A DNA stretch of 64,000 nt from an uncultured Nitrososphaerota archaeon (lineage in GTDB: Archaea; Thermoproteota; Nitrososphaeria; Nitrososphaerales; Nitrosopumilaceae), in contig OY969559.1 in NCBI GenBank assembly GCA_963701075.1, forward strand, positions 1,056,001 through 1,120,000. The letters run 5' to 3'. Below, piece by piece: positions 8,204-64,000 of this stretch. The notes beneath the pieces are model-generated. The model made no database searches. It was not told the DNA's origin and saw only the letters and a program-made list of their open reading frames with translations. Position 1 is the first letter of the stretch. Each line of letters opens with the position of its first letter. The translations under genes and the position numbers were made by a program.

Positions 8204-10091
8204 ATGACACTGCGACTTCTTTTCGATGAAATTCGATCTAACGTACAAAAAATCTCAAATGATCTAGGCTATCCACTGGTAGAGTTTGATGTATCAGAGG
8301 CATCCAAACCGGAATTTGGGGATGTAAGCTGTAATATTGGATTTCTGCTGGCAAAACCACTCAAAAAAAGGCCATCGGAAATCGCAGAGATTATTGCAAA
8401 TGAATACCAAAAGCACGAATGTGTATTCGTATCAAAAGTAACCGTCCATGCATCAGGATATCTTAACTTTGTTGCAAACCATTCCGCTTTCATTAAATCC
8501 GTTATGCAATCGTCAGTAAGACAAGACTATGGAAAGTTTGATCTTGGAAAGAATTCAAAGATTGTAGTAGAGCATACGAGTGTTAACCCAAACAAGGCAT
8601 TGCATATTGGGCACGTGAGAAACATCGTAATTGGAGATACAATGGCAAGAATTCTACACAAAGCCTGTTATGATGTCAGGATTTTAAACTATGTAGACGA
8701 TTCTGGGCTTCAGGTGGCAGATATTGTCGTTGGCTTCAAGTACGGCGGTTTTGATAGCGAGCCGTCACAGAACCAGAAATTCGATCATTATTGTGGTGAT
8801 GTCGTATATGTGAGCATCACTGAAAGATATGAAAAAGAACCGCTTCTTGCAGAAAAAAGAACTATGGTACTCAAAGAACTTGAAGAGGGAAACTCTGAGA
8901 TTGCAAAATTTGGTGATAAGATAACTCGAAGAGTTCTTGAAGAACAACTCAAGACTTGTTGGCGACTTGGAGTAACATACGACTGTCTAAATTTTGAATC
9001 GCAGATAATTCGCTCTAGGTTATGGAATATAGTTCTTGAGAAAATGAAATCCATGGGACTGATATATCTTGAAAACGAAGGAAAGAATGCTGGTTGCTGG
9101 GTAATAAAATCTGATTCAGAAACAGAAGAAGATAAGATTTTGATTAGAAGTAACGGTATTGCTACGTATATTGCAAAAGATATTCCATATGCTACGTGGA
9201 AGCTGAGGGATCTTGGAAGATCCTTTCTACTATAAACAATACACTGTACAGAAAAATGACAGAATACTTTGGGAGACCACTCTGGAAAATACCAAAACAA
9301 AACTGAATTTCACTGGCGATACTGTAATCACAGTTATTGATTCAAGACAATCAAGACTGCAAAAAATTATTACAAAAATAATAGATGATTTCAAATCAGA
9401 GGGAAAATCATATGTGCATCTTGGCTATGAGTCTGTTACTTTGAGTTCAGACACTGCAAAAAATCTTAATCTTGAAACTGAAGGCAAGTCTGTCCAGATG
9501 TCAGGCAGAAAGGGAATCTATGTTAACGCTGATTCTGTTTTGGACATACTTGGTAAAAAAACGTATGATGAAGTAAAGAAACGAAATCCAGAACTTGATG
9601 ATGCTCTTCTTATAAAAATTGCAGAACAGGTTGCGGTTGGTGCTCTACGATATGCCATGATAAAACAAGATCTTGATAAAATAATTACCTTTGATATGAC
9701 CGAATCGCTGAGTCTTGAAGGGGATACGGGGCCATACATACAGTATGCATACGCAAGATCTGTGAGAATTCTTGAAAAATCTGGCAAAACGCCTGCATTT
9801 GACGTCTCTTTTGATGATCTGAATACCTCCTACGAGAGAAACCTGGTAAAAATAATTGGCAAATTTGACATACAGGTAGAAGACTCTGCAAAGAACCTGT
9901 CTCCTAAGCTAATTGCCAGGTACTGTTATGAACTTGCAGTATCTTTCAATTCATTTTATGAACACGTCAAAGTATTGACTGCCGAATCTCCTGAAATGAT
10001 AAACGCAAGGCTTTGTCTTGTATGGTCGTTCAAAGAAACTCTAGTCAAGGCACTTTCTTTGCTGGGTATTGATGCTCCGCATAGGATGTAA
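8204..10091 (+). CDS. argS: Arginine--tRNA ligase; one apparent +1 indel at 9205
   Basis: EHTSVNPNKALHIGH, MSGRKG and GDTGPYIQYAYAR. Deleting G9205 restores W-K-L-G-I-L-E-D-P-F and joins the two ORFs. Confidence 0.9.
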
Positions 10092-49468: not shown

Positions 49469-49867
49469 ATGAGAATAGACCATGTTGCAATAGCTGTTAA
49501 CAACTTGGATGTAGCAGTAAAGGAATATCAAAACGTACTTGGAGTAAAAGAAGTAGAGTTTGAGACAGTAGAGACTGAAGGAGTGAGAGTTGCAATACTT
49601 CATCTAAACAATTCAAGAATTGAACTCATGGAACCAACAAAGGAGACAAGTCCAATCAAAAAATTCCTTGATACAAGAGGAGAAGGCTTGCACCATATTG
49701 CTCTTGAAACCGAAGGCATAGAAGGAGAAGTCGACAGAATGAAAGGTTCTGGAGTAAGATTTCTTGGAGAAATAAGGCCTGGCTCTGGAGGCACAAAGAT
49801 TACCTTTATTCATCCAAAGTCACTTCATGGCGTATTGACAGAGCTCTGCTCACACCCAAAAAAGTAA
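49469..49867 (+). CDS. mce: Methylmalonyl-CoA epimerase
   Basis: IDHVAIAV, IELMEP, GEGLHHIA and FIHPK...GVLTEL. Confidence 0.92.
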   Translation: MRIDHVAIAVNNLDVAVKEYQNVLGVKEVEFETVETEGVRVAILHLNNSRIELMEPTKETSPIKKFLDTRGEGLHHIALETEGIEGEVDRMKGSGVRFLGEIRPGSGGTKITFIHPKSLHGVLTELCSHPKK

Positions 49868-49983: not shown

Positions 49984-50412
49984 ATGATAAAACACATCAT
50001 GGTACCATATGATACATCAGAATCTTCTATCCGTGCATTTGAGTTTGCAGTTGATCTTGCAAAAAAATACAATTCAAGCATTAGTATTTTTTCATGTGTT
50101 CATCTACAGGTTCCAACCGATCCATACTTTGGGACAGCGTATGCAGAAACAACAAAACTATTGGAAAAAGACGCTATCAACTCAATATCAAAGTTAGAAC
50201 CAAGATTGAAAGAATCCAAGATACCGTTCAAGACTGAGGTATTGGAAGCAATTTCCATTACTGATGCCATAATATCATATGCGGAATCTCACCAAGTAGA
50301 TCTTATTGTGATGGGCTCGCGTGGACTGGGTGGATTTAAGAAACTATTGCTTGGGAGTGTCGCAAGTGGTGTCTCTCAACACTCAAAATGCCCAGTTTTA
50401 ATTATCAAGTAA
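49984..50412 (+). CDS. Universal stress protein (USP1)
   Basis: IMVPYD.S and VMGSRGLGGFKKLLLGSVA..V...CPVLIIK. Confidence 0.92.
   Translation: MIKHIMVPYDTSESSIRAFEFAVDLAKKYNSSISIFSCVHLQVPTDPYFGTAYAETTKLLEKDAINSISKLEPRLKESKIPFKTEVLEAISITDAIISYAESHQVDLIVMGSRGLGGFKKLLLGSVASGVSQHSKCPVLIIK
50308..50369 (+). repeat. 62-bp exact direct repeat, copy 1 (copy 2 at 51315-51376)
   Basis: gtgatgggctcgcgtggactgggtggatttaagaaactattgcttgggagtgtcgcaagtgg is identical in USP1 and USP3. Confidence 0.9.
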
Positions 50413-50453
50413 TACTGTTGAATCGTTGAGCGAGATAGATTACGGAAAACAAT

Positions 50454-50889
50454 CTATTTGACTATGAGAACTGGGATCTCCAAGTTGTTAAGAACCCCAT
50501 TAGTAACGCTGCCTAAATACTTGGTATCCGATGAGCTCTGACCTCTAGATCCCATTATTACTATATCAAACCTCTTTGATTTTGCAAAACCAACTATCGT
50601 TTTGACAATGCCAGGCGAGGTAATGATCTTTCCGTCAAATTCTATACCGTTCTTTGTTACACTTGATCTCAGCTTGAAGCATGATTTTTTCTGCACTTTT
50701 TATCAATTCTGTTCTGTATTTTTTTAACAGTGTAGGCGCTTTGGAAAACCCAGAGCTTGATATTACATAAAGTCCGGTTACTGTTCCGCTACTTTGCTTT
50801 GCAAGCGAAATTGCTACGTTTAAACCTCTTATTGAATTTGGGGAACCGTCCAACGGAACAAGAATTTTTTTTAGGGTATTTTGCGACAT
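50454..50889 (-). CDS. Universal stress protein (USP2); one apparent +1 indel at 50670
   Basis: ILVPLDGS N-half and MGSRG..LGSV C-half are in different frames; removing the base at 50670 joins them as LQARSSVTKNG. Confidence 0.8.
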
Positions 50890-50990
50890 GTTTGTAAATC
50901 TACATCGTATACTTAAAAACCAGATATATCAAGTTATCAAAAATGAAATTCTAAGGTCTCTTTAAATGGGCTGATTGATAATCTTTCTTT

Positions 50991-51419
50991 ATGTTTGAGC
51001 ACATCATGGTGCCATATGACAAGTCAGAACCTGCCAGTAGAGCACTTGAATATGCAATGGATCTTGCCAAGAAATACAGTTCAAAAATAAGTATTATAAC
51101 ATATGTGTCCCTGAACGTCGGTTATTCTGCAGATGGTGGTAGTTCATACGTGGAGATGGTAAAATTGCAAAAGAAATCAGCAGAATACACTCTCTCAAAA
51201 TTAGAACCAAAGTTACAAAAACTCAAAATTCCTTACTGCATTAAAGCAATTGAAGGAACATCCATCATTGAAACTTTAATTTCCTATGCAGAAATGCATC
51301 ACGTAAATCTTATAGTGATGGGCTCGCGTGGACTGGGTGGATTTAAGAAACTATTGCTTGGGAGTGTCGCAAGTGGAGTCTTACAGCATTCGGAGTGTCC
51401 TGTGTGGATAGTAAAATAG
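50991..51419 (+). CDS. Universal stress protein (USP3)
   Basis: IMVPYD.S and VMGSRGLGGFKKLLLGSVA. Confidence 0.92.
   Translation: MFEHIMVPYDKSEPASRALEYAMDLAKKYSSKISIITYVSLNVGYSADGGSSYVEMVKLQKKSAEYTLSKLEPKLQKLKIPYCIKAIEGTSIIETLISYAEMHHVNLIVMGSRGLGGFKKLLLGSVASGVLQHSECPVWIVK
51315..51376 (+). repeat. 62-bp exact direct repeat, copy 2
   Basis: Identical to 50308-50369. Confidence 0.9.
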
Positions 51420-51488
51420 GAATTTTGCTAGCCTTACATACCCAATAGCTGCAGTGCAGCTCACTGCATACATAGTTGTTAAATTCTA

Positions 51489-51674
51489 TTGAATCAATCC
51501 ACTATCGATCAGAAAATGGTATCAAGCCAGAAGATTGGACTCTTGAACTTCTTTGGAGTAAAAAACTCAAGAAAATACATTCTCATTTGCATAAGGTGTG
51601 GTTCTGATAATATTCAGCGGAAACAAAACCTTATTGAATGCAGAGAATGCGGTAAAGTTCTTTCCACCAAATAG
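51489..51674 (+). CDS. Small zinc-ribbon protein
   Basis: CIRCGS and CRECG. The start position is uncertain. Confidence 0.5.
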   Translation: MNQSTIDQKMVSSQKIGLLNFFGVKNSRKYILICIRCGSDNIQRKQNLIECRECGKVLSTK

Positions 51675-51748
51675 TGCCAAATTGTAATAACAAAAGGCCA
51701 GATAGAGCAAAAGGCTTAACCAATAATGAACCAAGTCTTGTAGATGGA

Positions 51749-52642
51749 CTAGGATTTTTGCGCACTGAGCAATTTACGAATTGAGCGTAATTCTTGTCTG
51801 CGTTTTGCACCTGATTTTGGATAAGCCATTTTGAGTTCTTTTAGTGCATCTAAGATGATCTGTGAAATGATCAGTCTGGTGTTCTCTTTGTCATCTGCAG
51901 GAATGACATACCAAGGTGCCTCAGTCGTGCTTGTGGCACTCAGACAATCTTCATATGCTCTCATGTAATGCTTCCAAAATTTTCTCTCCTCTATATCTGC
52001 AAGGCTAAATTTCCAATTCTTTTCGGGCTCATCAATACGCTTTAGAAAACGTTTCCGTTGTTCTTCTTTTGAAATATGGAGGAAAAATTTGATTATGCGT
52101 GTTCCGTTGCGATGTAGATGGTTTTCCAAGTTCACTATAGAATGATATCGTTGATGCCACATTGTATGCTTATCCAACAATTCATTTGGAAGGCATTCAC
52201 TGTGGAGAATCTCTGGATGTACACGAACAATCAGTACCTCTTCATAATAAGAACGATTGAAGATACCTATTCGCCCCCTTTCAGGCAGACATTGAACAGT
52301 ACGCCATAAAAAATCATGCTTAAGTTCCTCATTGCTTGGATGTTTGAAGCTGAACACTTGACATCCTTGAGGATTGATGCCAGACATCACATGTTTGATA
52401 GCACTGTCTTTTCCTGCCGCATCCATTGCCTGAAAAATCAATAGTAACGAATAGCGGTTTGATGCATAGAGAAGATTTTGCAAGGAGCTTAGTTCTTCCA
52501 CATGTTTTCTGAGGACTTGGTTATACTGTTCCTTTGATTTGTACACGGGGTTCACAGTTGTTTTATAGTTACTGAGTTTCACCTTTTTTCCTGCAGGTAC
52601 AAGAAAATCATTGCAATTTATTTTCATCATGTCACCTTTCAT
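51749..52642 (-). CDS. ppk2: Polyphosphate kinase 2, class III-type
   Basis: Walker A AMDAAGKD, Walker [27 protein letters not shown] and [11 protein letters not shown]. Confidence 0.92.
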
Positions 52643-52682
52643 TTCTGTAGTTTATAAAATATGTAAATAAGCACAAAAGATA

Positions 52683-52913
52683 TCATGCCCAGCAATAATG
52701 CAACAAGATGGTTTTGTACCAAGACTCAATTGAGTTATTTAGCAAAAAACCAAATAGAAAAGCTGAAAATGTTGTTAAAAGTGTGCTTTCCCTTATTATT
52801 GATCCGTAATCACTTGTCAGCGCGTCCTTGTCTGCACGTTCATATCTATCTTTGTTAGACAATCTGCCACTAGTTGAGTTTCTCCTATATTGAATAAACC
52901 GGCAAAATTTCAT
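52683..52913 (-). pseudogene. Probable truncated membrane-protein fragment
   Basis: One TM-like segment (ESTLLTTFSAFLFGFLLN) and then an abrupt end. Confidence 0.3.
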
Positions 52914-52922
52914 TTGTGATGA

Positions 52923-53399
52923 CTATATTCCCAATAATGATACAGTTTCACCATCTTTGTCGGAAGCTAGCACCTTACCTGATTCTTCCTTAGGGTCTAG
53001 TGAATAGACTGCTTTTGGTTTGAACATTATTACAGTAGGATGTTTATTCTTGCTTTGTTGTTCAAATATCTTCGATGATGTCTTGCCAGTGGCTGAGCGC
53101 GATATTGTTTCGATGATTTTTTCCCCCTTATTTTCATCAGTTATGAAACTCACCTTGCCTTTCATTTGGAATCCTCGTAATTGTTCTTTGTCAAAAACAG
53201 CCACACTAACCCAAGGTATTACTCGAAAATTTCCTTGGGATTTGTGTTTGAAAAAATCTAACCAATATATGGAATCATCTGTAAAATAAAATGCGGTCCT
53301 CGGTGATATGTTGGCTAATCCGTTTGGGTCGACTGAAGCAACCACTATGAACTTTTGTCTTTTCATCATGTAAAGTACATCTTCTGGAATTGTAACCAT
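52923..53399 (-). CDS. Pyridoxamine 5'-phosphate oxidase-like FMN-binding protein
   Basis: VVASVDPNG.ANISPR, HKSQGN..P.VSV and GFQMKG split-barrel pattern. Confidence 0.8.
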   Translation of the reverse strand: MVTIPEDVLYMMKRQKFIVVASVDPNGLANISPRTAFYFTDDSIYWLDFFKHKSQGNFRVIPWVSVAVFDKEQLRGFQMKGKVSFITDENKGEKIIETISRSATGKTSSKIFEQQSKNKHPTVIMFKPKAVYSLDPKEESGKVLASDKDGETVSLLGI

Positions 53400-53497
53400 G
53401 GGATTCCTTTCAATTTCTTTTAAATAAAAGTAATGATTGATTATCTTGATTGATAATCTTCATTCTCGTTATATAACATAGACAAGACAAATAATGC

Positions 53498-54253
53498 ATG
53501 AAAATTATTGTCGCAGCAATAGTTTCAATACTTGTTTTAACTGGATTGTGTGATTTGGCATATGCTGAATCATCATATCAAATGGAAGGAAGTGGGGCTG
53601 CAGTGATGGATACTAATAATCCGCAAATGTACCAATCCATATTTAGAATGACACTGTCAAACCAATCAACCATTACAAAAGGAACATTTCTGGTATATGG
53701 AAGTGATGTGTACCTACATGCATACATGTTGCCTCAAAGCTGGTCATTTTTGTATAATGCAGACGGATCTTTTCATGGACAAGGCCCAGTTCAGACCACT
53801 CAAGGCCAATTCTTTGATGTTGCATTAGATGGTAACCGGGTATTTGCAACAAACACCGGTTCACTATGGAAAGTAAGCGCCGATATGAAAAACAACAATA
53901 CCAATATGATACTTGATTATTTAACTACTGGAATAGATCCACTTCCCACCGTAAACGTATCTTCAAATGCAACTGTAATGATTCCAAACGGCAACTCTAA
54001 CGTAACTGGCGTTGGTTTTTACATACCGCTAAATCTAGAGGCGATGCGAGGAACCACAGTAACATGGCAAAACGAGGATAACATAGGCCATGTAATACAG
54101 AGCCAAGACGGCCACGGAAACATCATACCTATCTTTAGCAGTGCCATATTGAAGACAGGAGATACATTTAGCTACAAATTTGACAAGCCAGGTGTGTATT
54201 ATTATTTTTGTACAATACATCCGTGGAGAACCGGCGTAGTAACCATATCCTGA
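53498..54253 (+). CDS. Secreted cupredoxin (plastocyanin/azurin-like) domain protein
   Basis: Signal peptide, GTTVTWQN.D..GH and FDKPGVYYYFCTIHPW. Confidence 0.85.
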   Translation: MKIIVAAIVSILVLTGLCDLAYAESSYQMEGSGAAVMDTNNPQMYQSIFRMTLSNQSTITKGTFLVYGSDVYLHAYMLPQSWSFLYNADGSFHGQGPVQTTQGQFFDVALDGNRVFATNTGSLWKVSADMKNNNTNMILDYLTTGIDPLPTVNVSSNATVMIPNGNSNVTGVGFYIPLNLEAMRGTTVTWQNEDNIGHVIQSQDGHGNIIPIFSSAILKTGDTFSYKFDKPGVYYYFCTIHPWRTGVVTIS

Positions 54254-54346
54254 GACATTTTTCATCATTATGTTGAACAGAAAAGGTGATTCTCATGTTT
54301 GGTATTCGTGTACCGAAAATAAATTGCAAATGCTTGTCATAATTAT

Positions 54347-55111
54347 ATGCTGGTTCAACATGCAGGCAGTTTGGAAGGAAGATCCCTCGCCACTAGTATA
54401 GTTGCATCTAAGGGACGGAAAAAAAATCAAAATGTACTGAGAGTAGAAAACTTATCAAAAATTTACAGCTCAGAATCAGGAAAAGTAGTTGCATTATCAA
54501 ACATCAATTTTACAGTAAAAAAAGGCGAGTTTGTCTCTATTCTGGGACCATCTGGAAGTGGCAAGTCAACTCTGCTATACATGATAGGAGCATTAGACAG
54601 ACCTAGTGCCGGTAAGGTCTACATTAATGGAGTTGACGTATTCTCACTTAATGATTCGGAGATTGCAATGGTCAGAAACAGGCTAATTGGATATGTCTTC
54701 CAGTCGTATAATTTGATAAATAGATCAACAGTGCTAAAGAATGTCAAGATACCAGTAACAATACGTGGAATGGCTCGTACTGAGGCCAATTTCAAGGCGA
54801 TGGAGATTATGAAAGCACTAGGTATAGATGACAAAATTAATGAAAAACCTGCGAATCTAAGCGGTGGTCAACAGCAGAGGGTTGCTATTGCAAGAGCACT
54901 TGTCAATAACCCATCAATAATACTTGCTGATGAGCCAACTGGTAATTTGGATACGAAAACTGGCAGTGAAGTGTTTGAGATACTCAAAAAACTATCCCGC
55001 CAATTTAACAGAACAATAATCATGGTTACTCATAACGCCGAGCTTGCAGAAGAGACAGATCGGTCTATATTTATAAAAGACGGAAGTATTGAAAGAGAAA
55101 CGCGGCATTAA
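54347..55111 (+). CDS. ABC transporter ATP-binding protein (LolD/MacB/SalX-like)
   Basis: GPSGSGKST, LSGGQQQRVAIARAL, ADEPTGNLD and VTH. Confidence 0.9.
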   Translation: MLVQHAGSLEGRSLATSIVASKGRKKNQNVLRVENLSKIYSSESGKVVALSNINFTVKKGEFVSILGPSGSGKSTLLYMIGALDRPSAGKVYINGVDVFSLNDSEIAMVRNRLIGYVFQSYNLINRSTVLKNVKIPVTIRGMARTEANFKAMEIMKALGIDDKINEKPANLSGGQQQRVAIARALVNNPSIILADEPTGNLDTKTGSEVFEILKKLSRQFNRTIIMVTHNAELAEETDRSIFIKDGSIERETRH

Positions 55112-55298
55112 ACATCATCATTTGTTCCGTATTACGTCCGTCTTTGATTTTAGTACGTAACGTGATATACTTTCAAGAAAGATCTTCTAAAGATATCTGG
55201 AGTTTTATATTATGTCATAAAATTAAATTTCATTGATTGAAACCCATCTTTGGAAATTAAACAGATATAATATATGCAATGACTAGTTATGGACATTA

Positions 55299-56840
55299 TT
55301 GCATCTTAAAGCTGATATTTTGGGAATAGATTCAGGTGGAAAACCAATTGTATTTCTTAACAAGTCTGATGCAGACGATATTGGAATAAGAGCTTCTGGC
55401 AGAATCACTTTAAATTTCAAAAAAAAGTTGCTCACTGCAATAGTTAACACAACAACGTCAGTCAATCGAGGCCATATTGGAATAAACGACGAAGTTAAAC
55501 GCATGCTTGGCCTAAAACAAAATTCTGACGTAGATGTAGAAATTGCGGCCTTTCCCAAATCACTCCAATTTATTCATAATAGATTGACTGGAAGGAGACT
55601 GTTATATCATGAAATTTACGAAATTGTAAAAGATGTAGTACAGGGGAACCTAAATGAAAATGAAATTTCTGCTTTTGTTACTGCATTAAGCATACAGGGA
55701 TTAGATTTGGATGAAGCAACAAGTCTTGCTTTGTCCATGGTTGAAACTGGAAAACAACTTGATCTTGGAAAAAAGATCATCGTGGACAAACACAGTATAG
55801 GTGGCGTGCCAGGGGACAAGACAACATTGCTAGTTGTTCCTATTGTGGCAGCTATGGGCCTTACAATTCCCAAGGTTTCCTCAAGGGCAATAACGTCAGC
55901 TGGCGGTACTGCCGACAGGGCTGAAACACTAATGCCTGTAGATCTAGAGATAAGCGAGATGGAACGCGTCATACGAAAAAGTAACGGCTGCATGGTATGG
56001 GGAGGATCGTTGGATCTTGCACCCGCCGATGATATTTTTGTTAGAAGTGAATATTCCTTGTACATTGATCCTCTGCTACTACCTTCCATCATGAGTAAGA
56101 AAAAGGCTGTTAATGCGACTCATCTTGTCATTGACATCCCAACGGGACGGGGATCAAAAATGCAGACTATCAGCGAGTCTGACTTTTTGGCTAAAGAACT
56201 AATCGAGCTTGGGCGAAGGCTTGGAATTCGTACACATTGTGTTTTGACAAATGGTGAAAAACCAATAGGGTTTACCATGGGGCCATCACTTGAAGTGAGA
56301 GAAGCTCTCTCCGTATTGATGAACAAAGTAGATGTTCCAGATCTTGTCGATAAAGTCTGTCACATCGCAGGAAGCATATTTGAAATGGTCGGAAAGAAAA
56401 ATGGCTACCACCTAGCAAGAGAGATCCTGCATAGTGGAAAAGCGGAGAAAAAAATGAGGGAAATTATAGGCCTGCAGGGAGGAAACTCGAAAGTAAAGAT
56501 TGAAGATTTGGCAATTGGCGAAGAAAAACATATGGTCAGAGCAAAAAAGCCCGGTCAAGTTCTATGGATGGACAATATTGCACTCATAGAAATTGCTCGA
56601 GCGGCAGGAGCTCCAAAGGACAAAGGCGCTGGCATTGTTTTTAACAAGAAGACTGGCGACAAGGTGCGAATTGGTGATGTTTTGTATACTATCTACGCCG
56701 AAAAACCGCGAAAACTCTCAAGAACAGTTGAACTACTATCAGAAACAGAGCCATTTGGAATAGGTGACAATGTAGAGATGCTCATACACAAAATAAAAGA
56801 ATCTTCGTTTGTAAAAAGATCATTTATGATAGACAGGTAG
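55299..56840 (+). CDS. deoA: AMP phosphorylase (thymidine phosphorylase family with N-terminal extension)
   Basis: DKHSIGGVPG.KTT, PKVSSRAITSAGGTAD, WGGSLDLAPADD, SIMSKKKA and IARAAGAPKDKGAG; 513 aa; first gene of the operon. Confidence 0.92.
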   Translation: MHLKADILGIDSGGKPIVFLNKSDADDIGIRASGRITLNFKKKLLTAIVNTTTSVNRGHIGINDEVKRMLGLKQNSDVDVEIAAFPKSLQFIHNRLTGRRLLYHEIYEIVKDVVQGNLNENEISAFVTALSIQGLDLDEATSLALSMVETGKQLDLGKKIIVDKHSIGGVPGDKTTLLVVPIVAAMGLTIPKVSSRAITSAGGTADRAETLMPVDLEISEMERVIRKSNGCMVWGGSLDLAPADDIFVRSEYSLYIDPLLLPSIMSKKKAVNATHLVIDIPTGRGSKMQTISESDFLAKELIELGRRLGIRTHCVLTNGEKPIGFTMGPSLEVREALSVLMNKVDVPDLVDKVCHIAGSIFEMVGKKNGYHLAREILHSGKAEKKMREIIGLQGGNSKVKIEDLAIGEEKHMVRAKKPGQVLWMDNIALIEIARAAGAPKDKGAGIVFNKKTGDKVRIGDVLYTIYAEKPRKLSRTVELLSETEPFGIGDNVEMLIHKIKESSFVKRSFMIDR

Positions 56841-56843
56841 TAC

Positions 56844-57677
56844 ATGAAGACACTTCAACAAGTAACGGATGACATAAGAGAATTCAGAATCCAAGGAGCA
56901 AACCAAATTGCACTGTACAGTTTATGCTTCTTAAAAAAAATTGCGCTTTGTTATGGATTTGGACTCAAATTCAAGACTGTATCACGACATTTGGAAAGGG
57001 CCAGACCAACCGCAGTAGTACTTCATAACTGTATTCAGATTATAAACACAAGTCCAAAAATTTCTACAATTGATACTTTGATTAATACGCTACGTGACAT
57101 GGGAGAAAAAGAAGCAGTATACTCGGCCAAGATTATAAAGAATGGTTCTACAATAATTACATACTGTCACTCGGGGGAAGCAATGTCATTTATCAAACAT
57201 GCGTGGATAAAATACAAAAAGAGATTTTCTGTGATTGCGTGCGAGACAGAACCTTTGGAACAAGGTGTAAGAACCGCAAAAGAGCTGGCAAAAGTGGGAA
57301 TCCCTGTAACCCTGATTGATGATAACGCGATCGGGTTCTTCATAAAATGTGCAGATATGGTAATTGTTGGTGCGGATGCATTACGAAAAGAAGGACTGGT
57401 TAACAAGATAGGAACTAGCCTTCTTGCACAGGCAGCAAATGATGCAGCCAAGCCATTCTATGTGATAGCCAGCTCGCTTAAGATTGACAAGAGGAGAAAA
57501 TTTGAGATCGAGGAGAGGCCTGCAAACGAGATATACAGAAAAATAATGCACAAAAGAGGGCTGGGTGGAATAAAGATACGAAATCCGGCCTTTGATACAA
57601 CTCCATGGAAATATGTTACTGCTGTAATAAACGAGAGAGGAGTCTTGACAAAGAATCAGCTGAGGAAAGTGATATGA
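56844..57677 (+). CDS. Ribose-1,5-bisphosphate isomerase (eIF-2B alpha/beta/delta family)
   Basis: IQGA..IA, RPTAV.L.N, TYCHS (catalytic Cys), VGAD (catalytic Asp), NKIGT and NPAFDTTP; lies between AMP phosphorylase and RuBisCO. Confidence 0.85.
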   Translation: MKTLQQVTDDIREFRIQGANQIALYSLCFLKKIALCYGFGLKFKTVSRHLERARPTAVVLHNCIQIINTSPKISTIDTLINTLRDMGEKEAVYSAKIIKNGSTIITYCHSGEAMSFIKHAWIKYKKRFSVIACETEPLEQGVRTAKELAKVGIPVTLIDDNAIGFFIKCADMVIVGADALRKEGLVNKIGTSLLAQAANDAAKPFYVIASSLKIDKRRKFEIEERPANEIYRKIMHKRGLGGIKIRNPAFDTTPWKYVTAVINERGVLTKNQLRKVI

Positions 57678-58963
57678 GGCACATCGATTGGTACAAAGAC
57701 TTTGTTGATTTAAAGTACAAGCCAAGCAAAACTGACGTAGTCTGTCTTTTCAGATTTGAACCATCTGATAAAGTATCGGTTGTTGAAGCAGCTGGTAGAA
57801 TAGCTTCTGAAAGCTCGGCTGGAACATGGACAACACTGACCAAGTTGCCAAAAACAATAAAAAAAGTAATGGCGACTTCTTTTGAGATAAATGGCAATTT
57901 TGCTAAGGTTGCATATCCAATCGAGATCTGGGAACCAGGAAACATATCACAGCTGTTAAGCGGTATTGCCGGAAATATTTTTGGGATGAAAGCATTAGAA
58001 AATCTCAGGCTTGTTGATGTATCTTTGCCCATTCAATATACCAAACATTTCAGAGGACCAGAGTTTGGAATAGAAGGAATTAGAAGAATTCTAAAAGTAA
58101 GAAAGAGACCAATTACAGGGGCAGTAGCAAAACCCAAGATAGGATGGAGTGCTGAAGAACATGCGACGATTGCCTATGAGACGTGGATTGGAGGGTTTGA
58201 TTTGGTAAAAGACGATGAAAACCTTACATCAACACAGTTTAACAAATTTGAACAACGCGTAAAGCTTTGTGCCAAGATGCGAGACAAGGCTGAAAAAGAG
58301 AGCGGAGAAAGAAAATCCGCACTGATAAACATAACTGGAGAAACTAATCAGATGACAAAGCGCGCTAAAATGCTGCATGATTTTGGATTTGAATATGCAA
58401 TGATAGATGTGGTTACAGTAGGTATGTCAGCATTGCAAACTTTGCGTGAGGTGTGTCATGACCATAATCTGGCAATACATGCGCACAGGGCAATGCATGC
58501 TGCATTTGACAGAAATCCAAGACATGGCATATCGATGCTGTTTCTTGCCAAGATCTGTCGATTGATAGGCGTCGACCAGCTTCACATAGGGACCGTGATA
58601 GGCAAACTTGTTGGAACGCGTCATGATGTTCTAGATATAAAAAACGCGATTACTAGTCAAAATAACAAGAGGTTTGGCAGCCTGAATCAAAATTGGAACA
58701 ACATCAAACCGGTTTTTCCAGTCTCTTCTGGAGGCATACACCCAGGAATCATACCTGATGTGTTAAAGATCATGGGAAATAACATAGTGTTACTGGTGAG
58801 TGGTGGAATACACGGTCATCCAAATGGTACCCGTGATGGAGCACGTGCTGCAATGCAGTCTATTGAAGCCTCAATGCAGAGGATCCCGTTATATCAATAC
58901 GCAAGATCACACAAAGAACTTGGAGATGCCTTGGCAAAGTGGGGCCGTCTTAGGCCTCAATGA
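57674..58963 (+). CDS. rbcL: Form III ribulose-1,5-bisphosphate carboxylase
   Basis: ESSAGTWT, AGNIFGMK, KPKIG, GGFDLVKDDEN, HAHRAMHA, HIGTVIGKL, SSGG.HPG and GGIHGHP. ATG 57674 overlaps the upstream TGA. Confidence 0.95.
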   Translation: MRHIDWYKDFVDLKYKPSKTDVVCLFRFEPSDKVSVVEAAGRIASESSAGTWTTLTKLPKTIKKVMATSFEINGNFAKVAYPIEIWEPGNISQLLSGIAGNIFGMKALENLRLVDVSLPIQYTKHFRGPEFGIEGIRRILKVRKRPITGAVAKPKIGWSAEEHATIAYETWIGGFDLVKDDENLTSTQFNKFEQRVKLCAKMRDKAEKESGERKSALINITGETNQMTKRAKMLHDFGFEYAMIDVVTVGMSALQTLREVCHDHNLAIHAHRAMHAAFDRNPRHGISMLFLAKICRLIGVDQLHIGTVIGKLVGTRHDVLDIKNAITSQNNKRFGSLNQNWNNIKPVFPVSSGGIHPGIIPDVLKIMGNNIVLLVSGGIHGHPNGTRDGARAAMQSIEASMQRIPLYQYARSHKELGDALAKWGRLRPQ

Positions 58964-59007
58964 TTGTCATTTCATCTTTCATTGAATGTGTATATCTGAG
59001 AAACAAA

Positions 59008-59658
59008 TTATCTAATAATCACAACTGGACACTTGGCTTCTTCTGAAATTTTTCTGCTTACACTACCGAGTGCCATTATCTTGTTCAGTCTAGTCAATCC
59101 TCTACTGCCGATAACTATTAGGTCTATCTTGTTATCTCTTGCAAATTTTAGTATGGAATCAGCAGGTTTTCCAGTTATCACTTCGCAAAATGTATTGACT
59201 CCCGACTGCTTACATATTTTCATCTTTTCTTGGAGAACACTATTTGAATGATTTTTTTGTGGCTCTAAAATATCTTTATTTAATTTTTTTATCTTTTTGT
59301 TTACTTGATCTTGTATTATTATGGGTAATTGGTCTGTCTGGATATTGATGACATTTATTATGTATAATTCTGAACCAAACTCTTTTGCTATGTCAGTTGC
59401 CTCAATAAGTGCTTTTTTTGAATATTTTGAGTTATCATAAGGTACCAATATTTTGCCATATTTTTTCTTGCTAGGTAGAGATACGCCAGTACTTAGTTGT
59501 ACATCAATCCTTGATGCTGCATCATTTATTCTTTTTATATTTTGAAGAAAATCTTGATGATTGCCATATTTTGCATTTTTTAACATTACGCCTATCGTAT
59601 TTTTTATTATTGATACTTGCTTCCTTAATGAAAAATTATATTCGTAGTCCAAGTCCAT
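59008..59658 (-). CDS. Universal stress protein (USP4) with ~65 aa N-terminal extension
   Basis: ILVPYDNS and IVIGSRGL..ALGSVS..CPVVIIR. Confidence 0.85.
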   Translation of the reverse strand: MDLDYEYNFSLRKQVSIIKNTIGVMLKNAKYGNHQDFLQNIKRINDAASRIDVQLSTGVSLPSKKKYGKILVPYDNSKYSKKALIEATDIAKEFGSELYIINVINIQTDQLPIIIQDQVNKKIKKLNKDILEPQKNHSNSVLQEKMKICKQSGVNTFCEVITGKPADSILKFARDNKIDLIVIGSRGLTRLNKIMALGSVSRKISEEAKCPVVIIR

Positions 59659-59785
59659 ATCTATTCAACTACTGGAAAATGTATACTTATACTGTATCTC
59701 ATGGGATTACTTTTCTTACAATGAATTTAAAGGAATAATATAATTATCAAGATTGGAATCTTTTATATGAAAAAATTGGTTATTC

Positions 59786-60127
59786 CTAATTACTTGTATC
59801 AGAATTAGGAACGATTTCAACATCAAGTGAACCGCTTTTGAAACATGTTACAATGGACTTGATCTTTGATTTGTACAAAAAGTACTTTTTGCCATCCTGA
59901 CTTATGGAGCCGGAGATGCCAAGTAATTTGTGAGTATGTAGTAATTGCACTCTTCTGTATGTTGTGCTGATTGGAATACCACACTCTATACTTAGATCAA
60001 TGGTAGATTTTGGCATCTCAAGTGTAGATTCCAATATGGCACGGGAATACTTGTCAGCCAAGATCTCAAGCAAGACAGTCTTTGTTGTCTCTTCCTGTAC
60101 GGGTTTTGTCTGTAGTAAGACTTGCAT
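59786..60127 (-). CDS. ArsR-like winged-helix transcriptional regulator
   Basis: LADKYSRAIL, PKS..DLS.ECGIPISTTYRRVQ.L and DGKKYFLYKS. Confidence 0.8.
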   Translation of the reverse strand: MQVLLQTKPVQEETTKTVLLEILADKYSRAILESTLEMPKSTIDLSIECGIPISTTYRRVQLLHTHKLLGISGSISQDGKKYFLYKSKIKSIVTCFKSGSLDVEIVPNSDTSN

Positions 60128-60236
60128 GTACCTCTATTGGCACGAATTGATATAATCAGTAGGACTGCATTGCAGTGCAGTGCATACAAAAAACGCATTT
60201 TGAGATAGATTTTGTGTCTGTTTCCCCTTGCAGGCA

Positions 60237-60473
60237 CTATTTTTCTTCTTCTAGTCTCTCAATCTCTTCAAAACAGAGATTGACTAAATTTCTAAGATAT
60301 TCTGCCCTGTCGCGCAGAAGCGTTATTTGTTCATGTTCTTCCTCTTTTGACATTTTTTTGATGGTTAGATCCACCTGTCCAAAATACGTCAAGTCGTTTA
60401 TCTCGCCAAGAATCTTCAGTCTCTCTTCTTTAGATGTCAATTTTTCCCTTATTTCATCAAGATTACTCATCAT
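60237..60473 (-). CDS. Small helical hypothetical protein
   Basis: 78 aa charged ORF directly downstream of USP5. Confidence 0.5.
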   Translation of the reverse strand: MMSNLDEIREKLTSKEERLKILGEINDLTYFGQVDLTIKKMSKEEEHEQITLLRDRAEYLRNLVNLCFEEIERLEEEK

Positions 60474-60479
60474 TATTCA

Positions 60480-60905
60480 CTACTTTACTATAAGTACAGG
60501 AGTCTTTGATTTATGTACCACTGCGTTTGAGACGCTACCGAGAAAAACTTCCTTTACACTACCCAGTCCTCTTGCCCCAATTACTATTATGTCGAACTTG
60601 TTTTTTGTAGCAAAATCAACTATCTCTGAAGATTCGTTTCCGATTGCAGTTTTTCCAACAAAAACTATGCCATTTTGAGCAGCGCGTTTTTTAGCACTCT
60701 CCATAAACTCTCTGGCTGCTTTCATAAGGTATTTCTTGTCATAGGTTATTGGGGTAAAAGACTTTGGATAAATCGACATGACAAATAATCCCGTTATAGT
60801 TGCACCACACTGCCTTGCAAGATAGATGGCAGTGTCTAATCCTCTATACGAATTTTTTGATCCATCCAGAGGAACTAAGATTCGTCTAATTTTTGTTTTA
60901 ATCAT
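60480..60905 (-). CDS. Universal stress protein (USP5)
   Basis: ILVPLDGSKNS and IGARGLG..EVFLGSVS..PVLIVK. Confidence 0.92.
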   Translation of the reverse strand: MIKTKIRRILVPLDGSKNSYRGLDTAIYLARQCGATITGLFVMSIYPKSFTPITYDKKYLMKAAREFMESAKKRAAQNGIVFVGKTAIGNESSEIVDFATKNKFDIIVIGARGLGSVKEVFLGSVSNAVVHKSKTPVLIVK

Positions 60906-60946
60906 AAGCCACTTTCTTTCATGTTTAATTTAAGATTCACTTACAA

Positions 60947-60960
60947 TATCAATTATGATA
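60947..60960. promoter_or_regulatory. Candidate operator TATCA-N4-TGATA (perfect copy)
   Basis: TATCA-ATTA-TGATA between divergent USP5 and CBS genes; related copies occur in other island promoters. Confidence 0.5.
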
Positions 60961-61111
60961 ATCTATCTATAGTTTATCATGTATAAATAAGAGAGTAAGT
61001 ATAATGAAGTTTTCAATTATGATTATCTCAGATAAAAAAATGGCGTCCTTTTTATAGCCCTATGAATGTTTCAGAGAATGACGACATTGGGAATAATAGG
61101 AGATATCTGAG

Positions 61112-62278
61112 ATGAATTCTTTAGCAGCGTATGAACAGTTAAAGAATATTCGTGAACGTAAAGTTTCTAGAATTATAGGACCGGCAACTACGATAGAACC
61201 TACCGTTTCTGTCTCTAAACTCATAGGCATGATGCTCAGGGATGATTCTTACGATGTATTTTGTATGAATGGTCGTGAGGTATCAACCATAAATGCAAGA
61301 GAACTATTGACCTCGCGAGATGTCAAAAACATGAAGATCTCTCCTTTATTACACAAGGTTCAGGCCATAAGGAGAAATGATACCTTGGAGAAAGCGGCTG
61401 CAATTATGTCACATAATAGAATGCGTTCAGTTCCTGTAGTGGAAGACGGGAAAATAATTGGAGCAGTTAACATAAAAGAAATAATCAAACTATTAAATCA
61501 AGAGAACTTGAATTGGATCTCAGCAAGTGACATACTTACTCCAAATCCAATTACTATTGGCAGTAATGAATTACTTTCCTCTGCAAGACAAACGATGGCG
61601 ACGAAAAAAATAGATCACCTCCCCGTCATCAGTGGAGGAAAAGTATCTCAAGTCTTGACATCAATGCATCTTTTACATTTTGCTGTGCCTGAAGAAAGAA
61701 TAGGAAGTGGCATGAGAGGACGAAATACTGAAAGGAGATTTGGATCTCAGGTAGGTAATGCTGGAAGTACCAGAGTTCCCAACTGTCTTACAAGTGCATC
61801 TCTTAACACTGTAATGGGTGCAATGTTAAAGGCTGACACTTCATGTTGCTTGCTTACCTTGTGGGATAACCTACATGGAATAATTACTTACAAGGACTTG
61901 TTAGGAATACTTGAGTCCAGAATTCAAAGCACGGTACCCTTGTACATTATCGGGTTGCCGGAAAACTTGGGCAATGCACAAATAATAAAAGAAAAATTTG
62001 ACAAGATAATTAGAAATCTCATCAAGTCTTATCCTGAGGTGGAAGAGGCAAAAGCTAGTATCAAGACAATGCATAATCACGAAAGTAAGGGAGACCATTA
62101 CAAAGTTGTAATAAGAATAATGACACCATACAGGAGTTACAGCTATTCAGAACTTGGCTGGGATCTCTCAAAAGTTTTTGATATTCTTGGAAACAAAGTT
62201 ACCAGAAATCTCTCAAACCGAAGTAAGAAACGTTGGAAGACATCTGTTAGAAAGATAGAAAAGAGAAATATTTTCTAG
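61112..62278 (+). CDS. Four-CBS-domain protein with C-terminal HPF/RaiA-like domain (ribosome hibernation factor candidate)
   Basis: CBS motifs (RSVPVVEDGKIIG, DHLPVISGG, GIITYKDL), then a beta-alpha-beta-beta-beta-alpha-like tail (LYIIGL...YKVVIRI...GWDLSKVFD). Confidence 0.75.
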   Translation: MNSLAAYEQLKNIRERKVSRIIGPATTIEPTVSVSKLIGMMLRDDSYDVFCMNGREVSTINARELLTSRDVKNMKISPLLHKVQAIRRNDTLEKAAAIMSHNRMRSVPVVEDGKIIGAVNIKEIIKLLNQENLNWISASDILTPNPITIGSNELLSSARQTMATKKIDHLPVISGGKVSQVLTSMHLLHFAVPEERIGSGMRGRNTERRFGSQVGNAGSTRVPNCLTSASLNTVMGAMLKADTSCCLLTLWDNLHGIITYKDLLGILESRIQSTVPLYIIGLPENLGNAQIIKEKFDKIIRNLIKSYPEVEEAKASIKTMHNHESKGDHYKVVIRIMTPYRSYSYSELGWDLSKVFDILGNKVTRNLSNRSKKRWKTSVRKIEKRNIF

Positions 62279-62334
62279 TTATTTTTTTAAAAATTAACCA
62301 AGTTATTTCGGTATGTCATATGATTGATATCTAA

Positions 62335-62495
62335 TCACTTCTTATTTCTTGGACCTAGACTTGTTGCAACTATCTGTGCCATGTGTTTGGTCGCTGCAAT
62401 ATTGTTTCTTTGTGCATCGCAACCCTGGATTGTTTTGAACCATCTTTTGATACGATTACGGGTATTCCTTCAGATGTGGTCTGAACCAAAGCCAT
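62335..62495 (-). pseudogene. Thermosome (group II chaperonin) N-terminal remnant
   Basis: Reads MALVQTTSEGIPVIVSKDGSKQSR, then after a frameshift DAQRNNIAATKHMAQIVATSLGPRNKK*. This matches the thermosome N-terminus and stops where GMDKM is expected. Confidence 0.7.
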
Positions 62496-62548
62496 AAAGA
62501 CCTGTTACTTTTCAATAAAAATAGTAGAAGAAAATTACTATGCATGAT

Positions 62549-62562
62549 TATCATCCGTGATA
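62549..62562. promoter_or_regulatory. Candidate operator TATCA-N4-TGATA (perfect copy)
   Basis: TATCA-TCCG-TGATA just upstream of the TTATAA box of the PAC2 gene. Confidence 0.5.
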
Positions 62563-62641
62563 TTCTCCAACATGTTATAAAATTAGAAAAATACAGGTAA
62601 TTATATTGCTAGATAAAAATAATCCCAAAAACTTGAAGAAA

Positions 62642-63346
62642 ATGTCCACCGCGCCATCTATCTTGATTGTTGGCATTCCTGGACCTGGACTCATTGGTAC
62701 GCTCTCTGTCTCTTATCTGGTTCACTCGCTAGATATGGAAATTGTCGGTGAGATTGAAAACGAAGACACGACCCCTGTTGTGTTCGTTGATAATGGCGAA
62801 ATTTTTGGCCCAATTAGGATCTACAAAAAGGAATCACTGTATGCTATTCTTTCGGACACACCAATTGATTATGATATGGCTTCAGGTTTTTCTCAGTCAC
62901 TAATTGATTTTGCCCAAAAAAATAGCATAGACATGATTCTATTGCTTGGCGGCATACCTGCTTCTGAGAAAAATGCAGATGACATAAAAACATACGGACT
63001 CGCTACAAATGCAAAGCTTGACGCAATAATGTATGAAAATGAGATCCCCAAGTTTCTTAGCGGCATGATAGCAGGACCTGATGCTACCATACTTACACAT
63101 TTGAAAAATTCCACAATTCCATCATTGATTTTATTTACGCAGTGTAATTTCTTCTTCCCTGATCCTGAATCTGCCATGCATGCCATTGAGACAGTAGCAA
63201 GAATTGTAAAGCGAGATGTAGATCTTACTGAATTTAAGAAACAGATGAACTATTTGAGATTGCAAGGAAGACAGTTAATGGAAGAAACACTAAATGTTTT
63301 ACAACCGGAGCAAGAACCTCAGAAACCTCCACAGATTTACAAGTAG
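62642..63346 (+). CDS. PAC2-family proteasome assembly chaperone
   Basis: VGIPGPGLIG, PIRIY, LLGGIP and FPDPESA. Confidence 0.85.
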   Translation: MSTAPSILIVGIPGPGLIGTLSVSYLVHSLDMEIVGEIENEDTTPVVFVDNGEIFGPIRIYKKESLYAILSDTPIDYDMASGFSQSLIDFAQKNSIDMILLLGGIPASEKNADDIKTYGLATNAKLDAIMYENEIPKFLSGMIAGPDATILTHLKNSTIPSLILFTQCNFFFPDPESAMHAIETVARIVKRDVDLTEFKKQMNYLRLQGRQLMEETLNVLQPEQEPQKPPQIYK

Positions 63347-63350
63347 AGAA

Positions 63351-63746
63351 ATGTCGTCGCCAAGTTTTATCCCAGCATTTGAAAATCGCATCAATTCAAT
63401 ATTTGGCAATAGCTTAATTGATGATTTTGTCCATCGTGAGCTTGTACCTCTGTCTCATTTGACTGAAAAGGATTCAAGATGGATCTTGCAAATTGATCTC
63501 CCAGGAGTAAGAAAAAAAGATGTCTCAGTAACAGTAACCCGTGGTCACGTAATAGTAAAAGCCAAACTTGAAGAAGCATATCATGTTTCAAGGCATGGGC
63601 ATCTTACAAAGTTTGAATCTATGAGAAAAGTTTCTAGTCTTCCTACTCATGCAGATACAAAGAAGATCTCTGCTAGCCTCAAAAATGGAATTTTGACTAT
63701 AATGATTCCAAAAATAACGGACGGCAAGAAAATTCCAATTGACTGA
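63351..63746 (+). CDS. Hsp20/alpha-crystallin small heat-shock protein
   Basis: IDLPGVRKKDVSV and ASLKNGILTI.IPK...GKKIPID. Confidence 0.88.
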   Translation: MSSPSFIPAFENRINSIFGNSLIDDFVHRELVPLSHLTEKDSRWILQIDLPGVRKKDVSVTVTRGHVIVKAKLEEAYHVSRHGHLTKFESMRKVSSLPTHADTKKISASLKNGILTIMIPKITDGKKIPID

Positions 63747-63855
63747 ATCTTTGCACGATGAACAAATCATGCCTATCTGTATCTTGCCTGTTTTGTTATG
63801 CTATGAGATAGTTTATCTCTAAAACATATCAACTGGATATTGGGAATTGAATAAT

Positions 63856-64000
63856 TTGAATTATGCAAATAGAAGAATATTTGTAATCAAGTCAGATGGA
63901 ACTAGAGTACCGTTTAACCACAGAAAAGTCAAGCGAACATGTATTCGAGCAGGGGCTTCTAGAGAACTAGCTAATATTGTAGCAAACAAGGTCTCAGACC
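63856..64000 (+). CDS. ATP-cone domain protein, N-terminal part (runs off the window)
   Basis: From TTG 63856: ...IFVIKSDGTRVPFNHRKVKRTCIRAGASRELANIVANKV, matching the ATP-cone V.K.DG...F...K signature. Confidence 0.7.
   Translation, partial: MNYANRRIFVIKSDGTRVPFNHRKVKRTCIRAGASRELANIVANKVSD

Follow-up and report, generated by a model that had tools for sequence, protein, structure and literature searches.

The stretch of archaeal DNA considered here, a window of 64,000 nucleotides, contains three adjoining genes that encode an adenosine monophosphate (AMP) phosphorylase (AMPp), a short isomerase of the IF-2B/e2b2 family (e2b2) and the large subunit of a form III RuBisCO (rbcL). The window spans positions 1056001-1120000 of a genome (G000) that consists of one contig of 1,915,938 bp, is 95% complete as judged by marker genes, and belongs to a genus-level group (g1) called Nitrosotalea in public records. 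Together, these genes probably provide an aerobic ammonia-oxidising archaeon (AOA) of acid soils with a working branch of the archaeal pentose bisphosphate pathway for the salvage of AMP (nucleoside monophosphates). In this branch, AMPp would convert AMP and phosphate to adenine and ribose-1,5-bisphosphate (R15P), the short e2b2 protein would turn R15P into ribulose-1,5-bisphosphate (RuBP), and RuBisCO would combine RuBP with CO2 to yield two molecules of 3-phosphoglycerate, which would enter gluconeogenesis and central metabolism. The net effect would be the recycling of nucleotide ribose and the removal of AMP, with carbon for growth supplied by the 3-hydroxypropionate/4-hydroxybutyrate (3HP/4HB) cycle.

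The three genes lie on the + strand in the order AMPp-e2b2-rbcL and are tightly packed. Their junctions read as the initial annotation had described them: TAG-tac-ATG, with a gap of 3 bp, between AMPp and e2b2, and ATGA, an overlap of 4 bp, between e2b2 and rbcL. The listed reading frame of rbcL opens further upstream, at 57605 (57605-58963), and the ATG at 57674 was chosen as its start from orthologue alignments. The neighbours of rbcL are e2b2 on one side and a universal stress protein (USP) gene on the other, and the spacer 3′ of rbcL measures 44 nt (58964-59007). Presumably, the three genes are co-transcribed. A candidate promoter, the AT-rich box TAATATATGCAATG or a near variant of it, is found at an equal distance from the AMPp start in six of six loci, that is, in the window and in five orthologues of subclade A (L035, L038, L040, L041 and L042); if functional, this box would imply a leaderless or near-leaderless transcript. 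The TTG start codon of AMPp is kept in the same six loci. All 20 public runs listed as covering 55299-58963 are DNA-type metagenomes of soil, peat or wetland, with no RNA-type run among them.

The operon is not an artefact of assembly. Contigs of four other public runs, from two studies, match the window with at least 99% identity across its 46-64 kb interval and bridge both the upstream border of the operon (52286-55400 and 54090-55804) and the downstream one (56321-59370 and 58478-60877). In addition, both flanks are syntenic in six other g1 genomes, and the GC content shows no break across the window. Thus, there is no chimeric join, and the join or coverage break near 50 kb that the initial annotation had considered is contradicted by these data. 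A contaminant or chimeric origin was likewise rejected on the basis of bridging contigs and flank synteny.

Some small discrepancies are nevertheless present in the window, as shown by a split arginine--tRNA ligase gene (argS) and by a difference of 1 nt at 50670, which indicate that small assembly errors exist. The argS pieces are overlapping reading frames on the + strand, in different frames: the first (8204-9235) corresponds to profile positions 8-322 of NF002447, its N-terminal part, and the second (9213-10091) to positions 328-613, its C-terminal part. This frameshift may be due either to an assembly indel or to a real break, and no obvious homopolymer is seen at the junction. Contigs of three other runs have one base fewer at 50670, which lies between two USP genes, and show C and T in place of the window's T and G at 56296-56297, inside AMPp. 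These differences may reflect either strain variation or small assembly errors.

Within the genus, the order AMPp-e2b2-rbcL is kept in eight of the nine other genomes with an intact rbcL. The contig of the ninth, G146, opens inside the operon with the last 22 residues of AMPp, followed by adjacent e2b2 and rbcL; e2b2 is immediately upstream of rbcL in all nine. When compared with G180, the nearest usable relative, dN/dS is 0.074 for AMPp, 0.149 for e2b2 and 0.076 for rbcL, with dS at about 1.0-1.2, and it ranges from 0.05 to 0.13 for the flanking genes; more distant pairs are saturated. The trio is thus under purifying selection. In one genome, G199 (L036 7837-8678, contig C11), residues 1-76 of AMPp are fused directly to residues 227-424 of RuBisCO, with a TAG inside the fusion; it is a remnant left by deletion and, therefore, operon loss is in progress. 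Two closed g1 genomes devoid of the operon keep the surrounding frame (pnpox-cupredoxin ... HTH ... CBS) with the site of the trio empty. It could be proposed that the operon of the window is itself a decaying relic, or an artefact of assembly or binning, as the remnant in G199 and the small assembly errors might suggest. However, the frames are intact in 10 of the 32 sampled genomes of the genus, dN/dS for the trio is 0.07-0.15, both borders are bridged by independent contigs of four runs from two studies, and the flanks are syntenic, so the chance that this proposal is right is close to negligible.

The first and last proteins of the operon are readily assigned. AMPp scores 568 bits against TIGR03327 (AMP_phos), above the equivalog cut-off of 535, and its closest solved relative is the T. 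kodakarensis (Thermococcus kodakarensis) structure 4ga5 (423 bits; residues 5-492 aligned). Thymidine and pyrimidine phosphorylases, for their part, align to it only from about residue 86-92. As the alignment with 4ga5 starts at residue 5, AMPp has an extra N-terminal domain that is absent from nucleoside phosphorylases. RuBisCO reaches 577 bits on TIGR03326 (rubisco_III; cut-off 497) and falls far short on other models, namely form II NF010002 (240 against 489), MtnW NF007095 (231 against 409) and OiaX (185 against 700). Its closest solved relative is Pyrococcus horikoshii 2cwx (482 bits), with which the active-site motifs align. These motifs were located by script: KPK at 153-155, KDDE at 179-182, HAHRA at 269-273, HIGT at 304-307, GKL at 310-312, SSGG at 351-354 and GGIHGHP at 377-383. 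The corresponding active-site residues, which supply the carbamylated lysine, the metal ligands and the P1 and P2 phosphate sites, are in spinach numbering K175, K177, K201, D203, E204, H294, R295, H327, K334, S379, G381, G403 and G404. As judged from the sequence, the carboxylase active site is complete. A form IV RuBisCO-like protein (RLP) is ruled out by the intact motifs and by RLP models that score far below their cut-offs, which settles a grouping with form IV that the initial annotation had considered; every motif that it had named (KPK, KDDE, HAHRA, GKL, SGG and GG.HGHP) was recovered, and its assignments of AMPp, R15P isomerase and RuBisCO hold, the isomerase below its equivalog cut-off. 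One general consideration weighs against the proposed function: form III RuBisCO is generally regarded as oxygen-sensitive, and it is therefore odd in an obligate aerobe. An archaeal phosphoglycolate phosphatase encoded elsewhere in the window could handle the oxygenase by-product.

The middle gene requires more discussion. Its product matches PF01008 (IF-2B) with 187 bits, and its best equivalog is TIGR00511 (ribulose_e2b2), the family of R15P isomerase; its closest solved relative is the T. kodakarensis R15P isomerase (3a11). It belongs to a subfamily of about 273-288 residues, parted by a branch with a support of 100* from the e2b2 proteins of 309-325 residues found in basal Nitrososphaeria. 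For the T. kodakarensis enzyme, the available text of Gogoi and Kanaujia 2019 (PMC6423476) gives Cys133 and Asp202 as the catalytic pair, and Arg20, Arg63, Ser135, Asn212, Lys213, Lys238 and Arg254 as ligands of phosphate and ribose. In the window's protein, according to equivalences read by eye from a HMMER alignment, the catalytic pair corresponds to C108 and D178, the latter within a GAD motif, and six of the seven ligands are kept (R54, S110, N187, K188, K213 and R225). C108 aligns with the cysteine that is a serine in the C133S mutant 3vm6. The Cys/Asp pair is shared by MtnA and does not discriminate for R15P isomerase. The AlphaFold (AF2) model of the protein has a pLDDT of 90.2, and a Foldseek search ranks R15P isomerases of T. 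kodakarensis and P. horikoshii first to eighth by E-value (6e-24 to 1e-22; TMq 0.72-0.85). The genome encodes only one other IF-2B paralogue, a bona fide MtnA (TIGR00512, 356 bits against 279). Thus, the operonic e2b2 is the sole candidate of this family for the R15P isomerase.

Gene linkage is the strongest argument for this role. In a metagenome scan with the short e2b2 subfamily, rbcL lies directly downstream of e2b2 on the same strand in 60 of 80 loci, with a gap of 44 nt or less in 48 of these 60. In the remaining loci the contig ends too soon (13) or rbcL is missing despite sufficient room (7). In the survey of genomes described below, e2b2 matches above 50% identity were found only in nine g1 genomes and in two genomes of genus g34, all with an intact RuBisCO.

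Several observations count against the isomerase role. The protein scores 181 bits on TIGR00511, short of the equivalog cut-off of 314, and narrowly misses the subfamily cut-off of eIF-2B_rel (181 against 186). Moreover, Arg20 of the T. kodakarensis enzyme, a 5-phosphate ligand, is replaced by Gln17, a glutamine that is invariant in 26 members of the subfamily, and Lys136-Ala137, which make main-chain contacts, are replaced by Gly-Glu. In the Foldseek search, MtnA and eIF2B structures are nearly as good, and the highest TMq (0.86) belongs to the MtnA structure 2yrf. Accordingly, the middle gene might encode a regulatory aIF2B-like protein or another sugar-phosphate isomerase, in which case RuBP would be supplied otherwise or the trio would not serve AMP salvage. 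The low TIGR00511 score and the two substitutions are in line with this possibility, as is the match in size with an uncharacterised P. horikoshii protein of 276 residues (1vb5), to which the model has a TM of 0.83/0.84. Nevertheless, it is unlikely: C108 and D178 are invariant in the same 26 members, six more ligand residues are likewise retained without change throughout the subfamily, R15P isomerases are the top matches in both sequence and fold, linkage to RuBisCO is near-obligate (60 of 67 informative metagenome loci), its close matches co-occur strictly with an intact RuBisCO (nine g1 and two g34 genomes), and a separate MtnA is already encoded in the genome. As the equivalog cut-off is not reached, the function assigned to e2b2 rests on catalytic residues, fold and gene linkage, and the protein is treated here as a putative R15P isomerase. 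The activities of all three enzymes and their substrate range are likewise predicted.

A RuBisCO that appears catalytically complete, in an autotrophic host, might also be thought to take part in autotrophic CO2 fixation beside the 3HP/4HB cycle, in a Calvin-Benson-Bassham (CBB)-like or reductive hexulose-phosphate cycle. This is very improbable. No phosphoribulokinase (PRK; PF00485) match was found in the window's genome, which is 95% complete, while the same search was positive in 11 of 14 control genomes. In addition, rbcL is set in an operon with AMPp and the isomerase gene, and the same conclusion was reached for Ca. Nitrosotalea bavarica in the available text of Herbold et al. 2017 (PMC5767755). 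Thus, because there is no PRK, the route would be one of salvage and not a second autotrophic cycle.

The distribution of these genes was surveyed in 401 genomes of the class (G000 and 400 others), where genomes flagged as unpublished (G132, G231, G283 and G327 of g1, and G364 of family f3) were counted as negatives only. amoA is present in 303 of the 401, in the families f1 (Nitrosopumilaceae; 214 of 223, and G000), f2 (10 of 10), f3 (Nitrososphaeraceae; 74 of 78) and f5 (4 of 4), and in no other family; these four amoA-bearing families comprise 316 sampled genomes. RuBisCO matches occur in 58 of the 401 genomes, 45 of them above the cut-off. In the amoA-bearing families, an intact RuBisCO was found in only 12 of the 316: 10 of 32 in g1 (G000 and 9 of 31 others) and 2 of 78 in f3, both in g34; a search of the 192 remaining f1 genomes yielded none. 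RuBisCO is therefore rare in ammonia oxidisers, as the initial annotation had supposed, and the operon is not common in them, an outcome that it had also considered. In basal families without amoA, RuBisCO is common (f12, 8 of 9; f13, 8 of 14; f17, 16 of 17). Family f7, which lacks amoA, reaches only about 262-284 bits on TIGR03326. A RuBisCO scan of genome contigs returned nine loci, four of them Nitrosotalea-like. The other five, from Methanosarcinales or Woesearchaeota metagenome-assembled genomes (MAGs), have 49-54% identity and no adjoining AMPp or e2b2, and were used only as outgroups.

AMPp is more widely distributed than RuBisCO among ammonia oxidisers. TIGR03327 is matched above cut-off in 85 of the 401 genomes, among them 36 of f1 including G000 (g1, 10; g2, 12; g3, 6; g7, 3; g9, 2; g16, 2; g18, 1), nine of f3 and two of f7. 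Thus, 33 of the 316 sampled genomes of the amoA-bearing families carry AMPp without RuBisCO. For these stand-alone genes, 20 loci (L092-L111) were fetched out of 35 AMPp-bearing genomes of f1, f3 and f7 without intact form III RuBisCO; 19 are from AOA (f1 and f3) and one is from f7, without amoA. No e2b2 or rbcL is found within 6 kb of AMPp in any of the 20. Instead, a convergent PRPP-synthetase-like gene lies downstream in 10 of 20 loci, USP genes are neighbours in 10 of 20, and an ATP-cone/AF1548-C protein in 9 of 20. A literature search found no discussion of AMPp in these AOA genera, or of AMPp without RuBisCO.

Some AMPp genes show peculiarities of their own. Two Nitrosopumilaceae genomes, one of them closed, have AMPp split into two adjacent pieces near residue 270 (G193:C1:684050-685512 and G288:C106:3165-4621), and these may be pseudogenes. 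In three metagenome loci (L156, L195 and L197), the AMPp match is broken at the HSIGGVPG phosphate loop into two pieces (query residues 1-168 and 165-513) with about 1.5 kb between them, which looks like an intein. Finally, the stand-alone AMPps of two g34 loci of f3 (L109 and L110, from G331 and G278) fall within the Nitrosopumilaceae clade, beside a g2 sequence (100/98), either through inter-family transfer or through a binning error.

The origin of the cassette was approached through trees of its proteins. The careful AMPp tree has 58 rows, including 25 of 34 metagenome trios (copies with at least 92% identity were removed), and ten redundant earlier rows were dropped. In this tree, AOA sequences form an order-level clade (95/89) that contains an f3 clade (100/98) with the g34 operon copy, and an f1 clade (100/100). 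The latter unites the two Nitrosotalea operon groups with the AMPps that stand alone in six other genera and with an f1-like contig from metagenomes; nested within it, too, is one stand-alone copy from g34. The AOA clade is itself nested among the AMPps of metagenomic e2b2-rbcL-AMPp clusters (97/89 and deeper), apart from basal Nitrososphaeria (100/99). In a large protein collection, the nearest AMPps from outside the genus all carry AOA names (Nitrosotenuis, Nitrosopumilus and Nitrosopumilaceae), with 64-71% identity. The careful rbcL tree has 50 rows, including nine basal ones, seven database proteins with names and the 25 metagenome rows of the AMPp tree. There, f1-type RuBisCOs group together (91/74), within an unresolved clade (100/98) that also holds two groups labelled Aenigmarchaeota, Methanoperedens or 'Form III-b uncultured archaeon'. 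The g34 sequences are sister to this clade (100/98), and most metagenome clusters lie outside (97/97). A quick e2b2 tree agrees with the rbcL tree, as does an earlier quick rbcL tree that included 26 of 56 non-genus database hits. Taxon labels of database proteins are those of the depositors' MAG bins and are unchecked. Gene order varies: it is AMPp-e2b2-rbcL in Nitrosotalea, e2b2-rbcL-AMPp in g34 and, in f1-like contigs, e2b2-rbcL with AMPp next to it on the other strand, after rbcL. Such Nitrosopumilaceae-like metagenome contigs are picked out by similarity of flanking open reading frames to the window's own genome, whereas Nitrososphaeraceae-like contigs are not separable from other archaea by this measure (f3 control loci have means of 32-50% identity).

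These results slightly favour an ancient cassette of the AOA order that suffered many losses, together with an exchange of RuBisCO (and e2b2) in which a Nitrosopumilaceae-like lineage and other archaea took part. With moderate confidence, AMPp may be taken as all that remains of this cassette in many AOA lineages. Not all the data fit easily with an old cassette. The branching of AMPp inside f1 does not follow genera, the RuBisCOs labelled Aenigmarchaeota, Methanoperedens or 'Form III-b uncultured archaeon' are closer to that of the window (65-69% identity) than those of g34 (53-55%), and an approximately unbiased (AU) test rejects an AOA-only rbcL clade (p = 0.015; delta lnL 22.4), although the AOA group of this test was named after the tree had been seen and g34 is on a long branch.

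An alternative, somewhat less probable but still worth serious thought, is that e2b2-rbcL was captured recently from a DPANN-like or Methanoperedens-like 'form III-b' donor, beside a resident AMPp in the Nitrosotalea ancestor and independently in g34. The labels of the nearest non-genus RuBisCOs and the AU test are in agreement with such a capture, and so are the different gene orders of g1 and g34, the AOA affiliation of all the nearest AMPp relatives, and the e2b2 tree, in which an Aenigmarchaeota-labelled protein is nearer to g1 than g34 is (97 SH-aLRT). On the other hand, capture would require two or three separate insertions, each precisely next to AMPp, and a single old cassette is more parsimonious; identity between g1 and g34 is alike for the three proteins (AMPp, 57%; rbcL, 53-56%; e2b2, 55-58%). 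The AMPp of the g34 operon is also of f3 type, while those of g1 and of the f1-like contig are of f1 type. Furthermore, the long g34 rbcL branch (0.77) may push g34 outwards, and the database labels are unchecked MAG bins. An old cassette with losses is preferred, and from the two origins offered in the initial annotation, lateral acquisition or patchy retention, it is retention with loss inside the AOA that is favoured, the lateral part standing only as an exchange of RuBisCO with other archaea. A more speculative and rather doubtful scenario goes further: most lineages would have dropped RuBisCO and isomerase after an ancestral cassette, AMPp-only AOA (about one in ten) would direct R15P to an undescribed fate independent of RuBisCO, and Nitrosotalea with the full trio would run form III RuBisCO under oxic, acidic conditions by means of the Gln-for-Arg20 isomerase, as a short class of R15P isomerase in its own right.

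The trait itself is not new, as it was published for a sister species in 2017. The available text of Herbold et al. 2017 (PMC5767755) reports a type III RuBisCO beside AMPp in Ca. Nitrosotalea bavarica SbT1, notes the absence of PRK, proposes AMP salvage and describes the trait as species-specific within the genus; the initial annotation was therefore correct in recalling a form III RuBisCO in a Nitrosotalea. In the part available of Reji and Francis (10.1101/2019.12.22.886556), this RuBisCO counts as one of two earlier thaumarchaeal reports. The window shares with N. bavarica the genus-level group, the RuBisCO type beside AMPp and the conclusion of AMP salvage without PRK. Differences are also evident. 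In the available text of the 2017 report, the isomerase step is given to an MJ0601 homologue elsewhere in the genome, an assignment flagged there as doubtful, whereas e2b2 lies between AMPp and rbcL in every operon-bearing g1 genome whose contig reaches that far. Additionally, the genome around the window copy is one contig, and 10 of 32 sampled species-level genomes have the trait, not just one. New here are the short isomerase within the operon, the figures on distribution, the AMPp genes that stand alone in other AOA, an AMPp tree congruent at family level and the deletion remnant in G199.

The AMP metabolic pathway of T. kodakarensis was reportedly described by Sato and colleagues in 2007, and the window has the same three families (4ga5, 3a11 and 1geh), with the same predicted chemistry and the catalytic residues kept. 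By contrast, the host here is an ammonia oxidiser that is mesophilic, aerobic and autotrophic, and its genes form a single tight operon; its isomerase is shorter by about 45 residues, carries Gln in place of Arg20 and scores below the equivalog cut-off. Sources of AMP may also differ, as N. bavarica is without ADP-dependent sugar kinases according to the available text of Herbold et al. 2017 (PMC5767755). A second likeness is to the form III-b clusters of DPANN archaea, since the three genes are clustered in metagenome loci. Such RuBisCO/AMP-pathway gene clusters are said to have been reported by Jaffe and colleagues in 2019, and they are also treated by Li et al. 2021 (PMC8407114). Further similarities are the short e2b2 subfamily and a closely related RuBisCO, with 65-69% identity to hits labelled form III-b. 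Nevertheless, the predominant order in DPANN-type clusters is e2b2-rbcL-AMPp (34 of 80 metagenome loci) and not AMPp-e2b2-rbcL as in the window, whose AMPp falls in the AOA clade and whose host is a free-living chemolithoautotroph. A third system is the RuBisCO of heterotrophic marine Thaumarchaeota, reportedly described by Aylward and Santoro in 2020; f7 is likely the equivalent of this family. Judging from the available part of 10.1101/2019.12.22.886556, its form III-a-like RuBisCO resembles the present case in the taxonomic class of its hosts, in the absence of PRK and in its interpretation as nucleotide-linked CO2 incorporation, but shares under 30% identity with the Nitrosotalea type and occurs in genomes without amoA.

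The remainder of the genome agrees with a 3HP/4HB-type ammonia oxidiser, as first annotated: amoA (349 bits) and a 4-hydroxybutyryl-CoA-dehydratase-like gene of the HpaB_N type are present, and the mutase, MeaB and epimerase genes are located 5-9 kb upstream of the operon, where the distance of about 5 kb first given for mutase and epimerase agrees with that measured (Table 1). Genes linked to adenylates and stress flank the operon at 49984-52642 and 59008-64000; besides those in the table, they include four USPs, a proteasome-assembly chaperone and Hsp20. From the surrounding USP, CBS, PPK2 and ATP-cone genes, the physiological trigger of the operon may be energy or adenylate stress. Elsewhere in the window, a protein of 470 residues (2860-4272, + strand) has collagen-like Gly-X-Y repeats, which are unusual in an archaeon; it matches bacterial Scl/Lcl adhesin models below cut-off.

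Table 1. Features of the operon and of other genes in the window
Feature	Position	Strand	Remarks
AMP phosphorylase (AMPp)	55299-56840	+	513 aa, DeoA-like, TTG start
Short e2b2/IF-2B-family isomerase	56844-57677	+	277 aa; putative R15P isomerase
Form III RuBisCO large subunit (rbcL)	57674-58963	+	429 aa from the ATG of the ATGA overlap
Candidate archaeal TATA-type promoter, AT-rich box TAATATATGCAATG	55268-55281	+	18-31 nt upstream of the AMPp TTG
Methylmalonyl-CoA mutase large subunit	47875-49467		5.4 kb upstream of the operon, together with epimerase
Methylmalonyl-CoA epimerase	49469-49867		
PPK2-type ADP-polyphosphate phosphotransferase	51749-52642	-	516 bits against 450
CBS-domain protein	61112-62278		
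ATP-cone protein	starts about 63871		runs off the window end
Archaeal phosphoglycolate phosphatase	7504-8199		

RuBisCO in soil and peat metagenomes is often taken as a sign of Calvin-cycle autotrophy, and for such an abundant nitrifier this reading would be wrong. The presence of a stand-alone AMPp in 33 of 316 genomes raises, in turn, the question of what use the cell makes of R15P. The operon of Nitrosotalea is predicted to be a natural case in which an obligate aerobe uses a form III RuBisCO at moderate temperature, and for ammonia oxidisers adapted to acid it offers a testable link of carbon metabolism to the turnover of nucleotides or adenylates.

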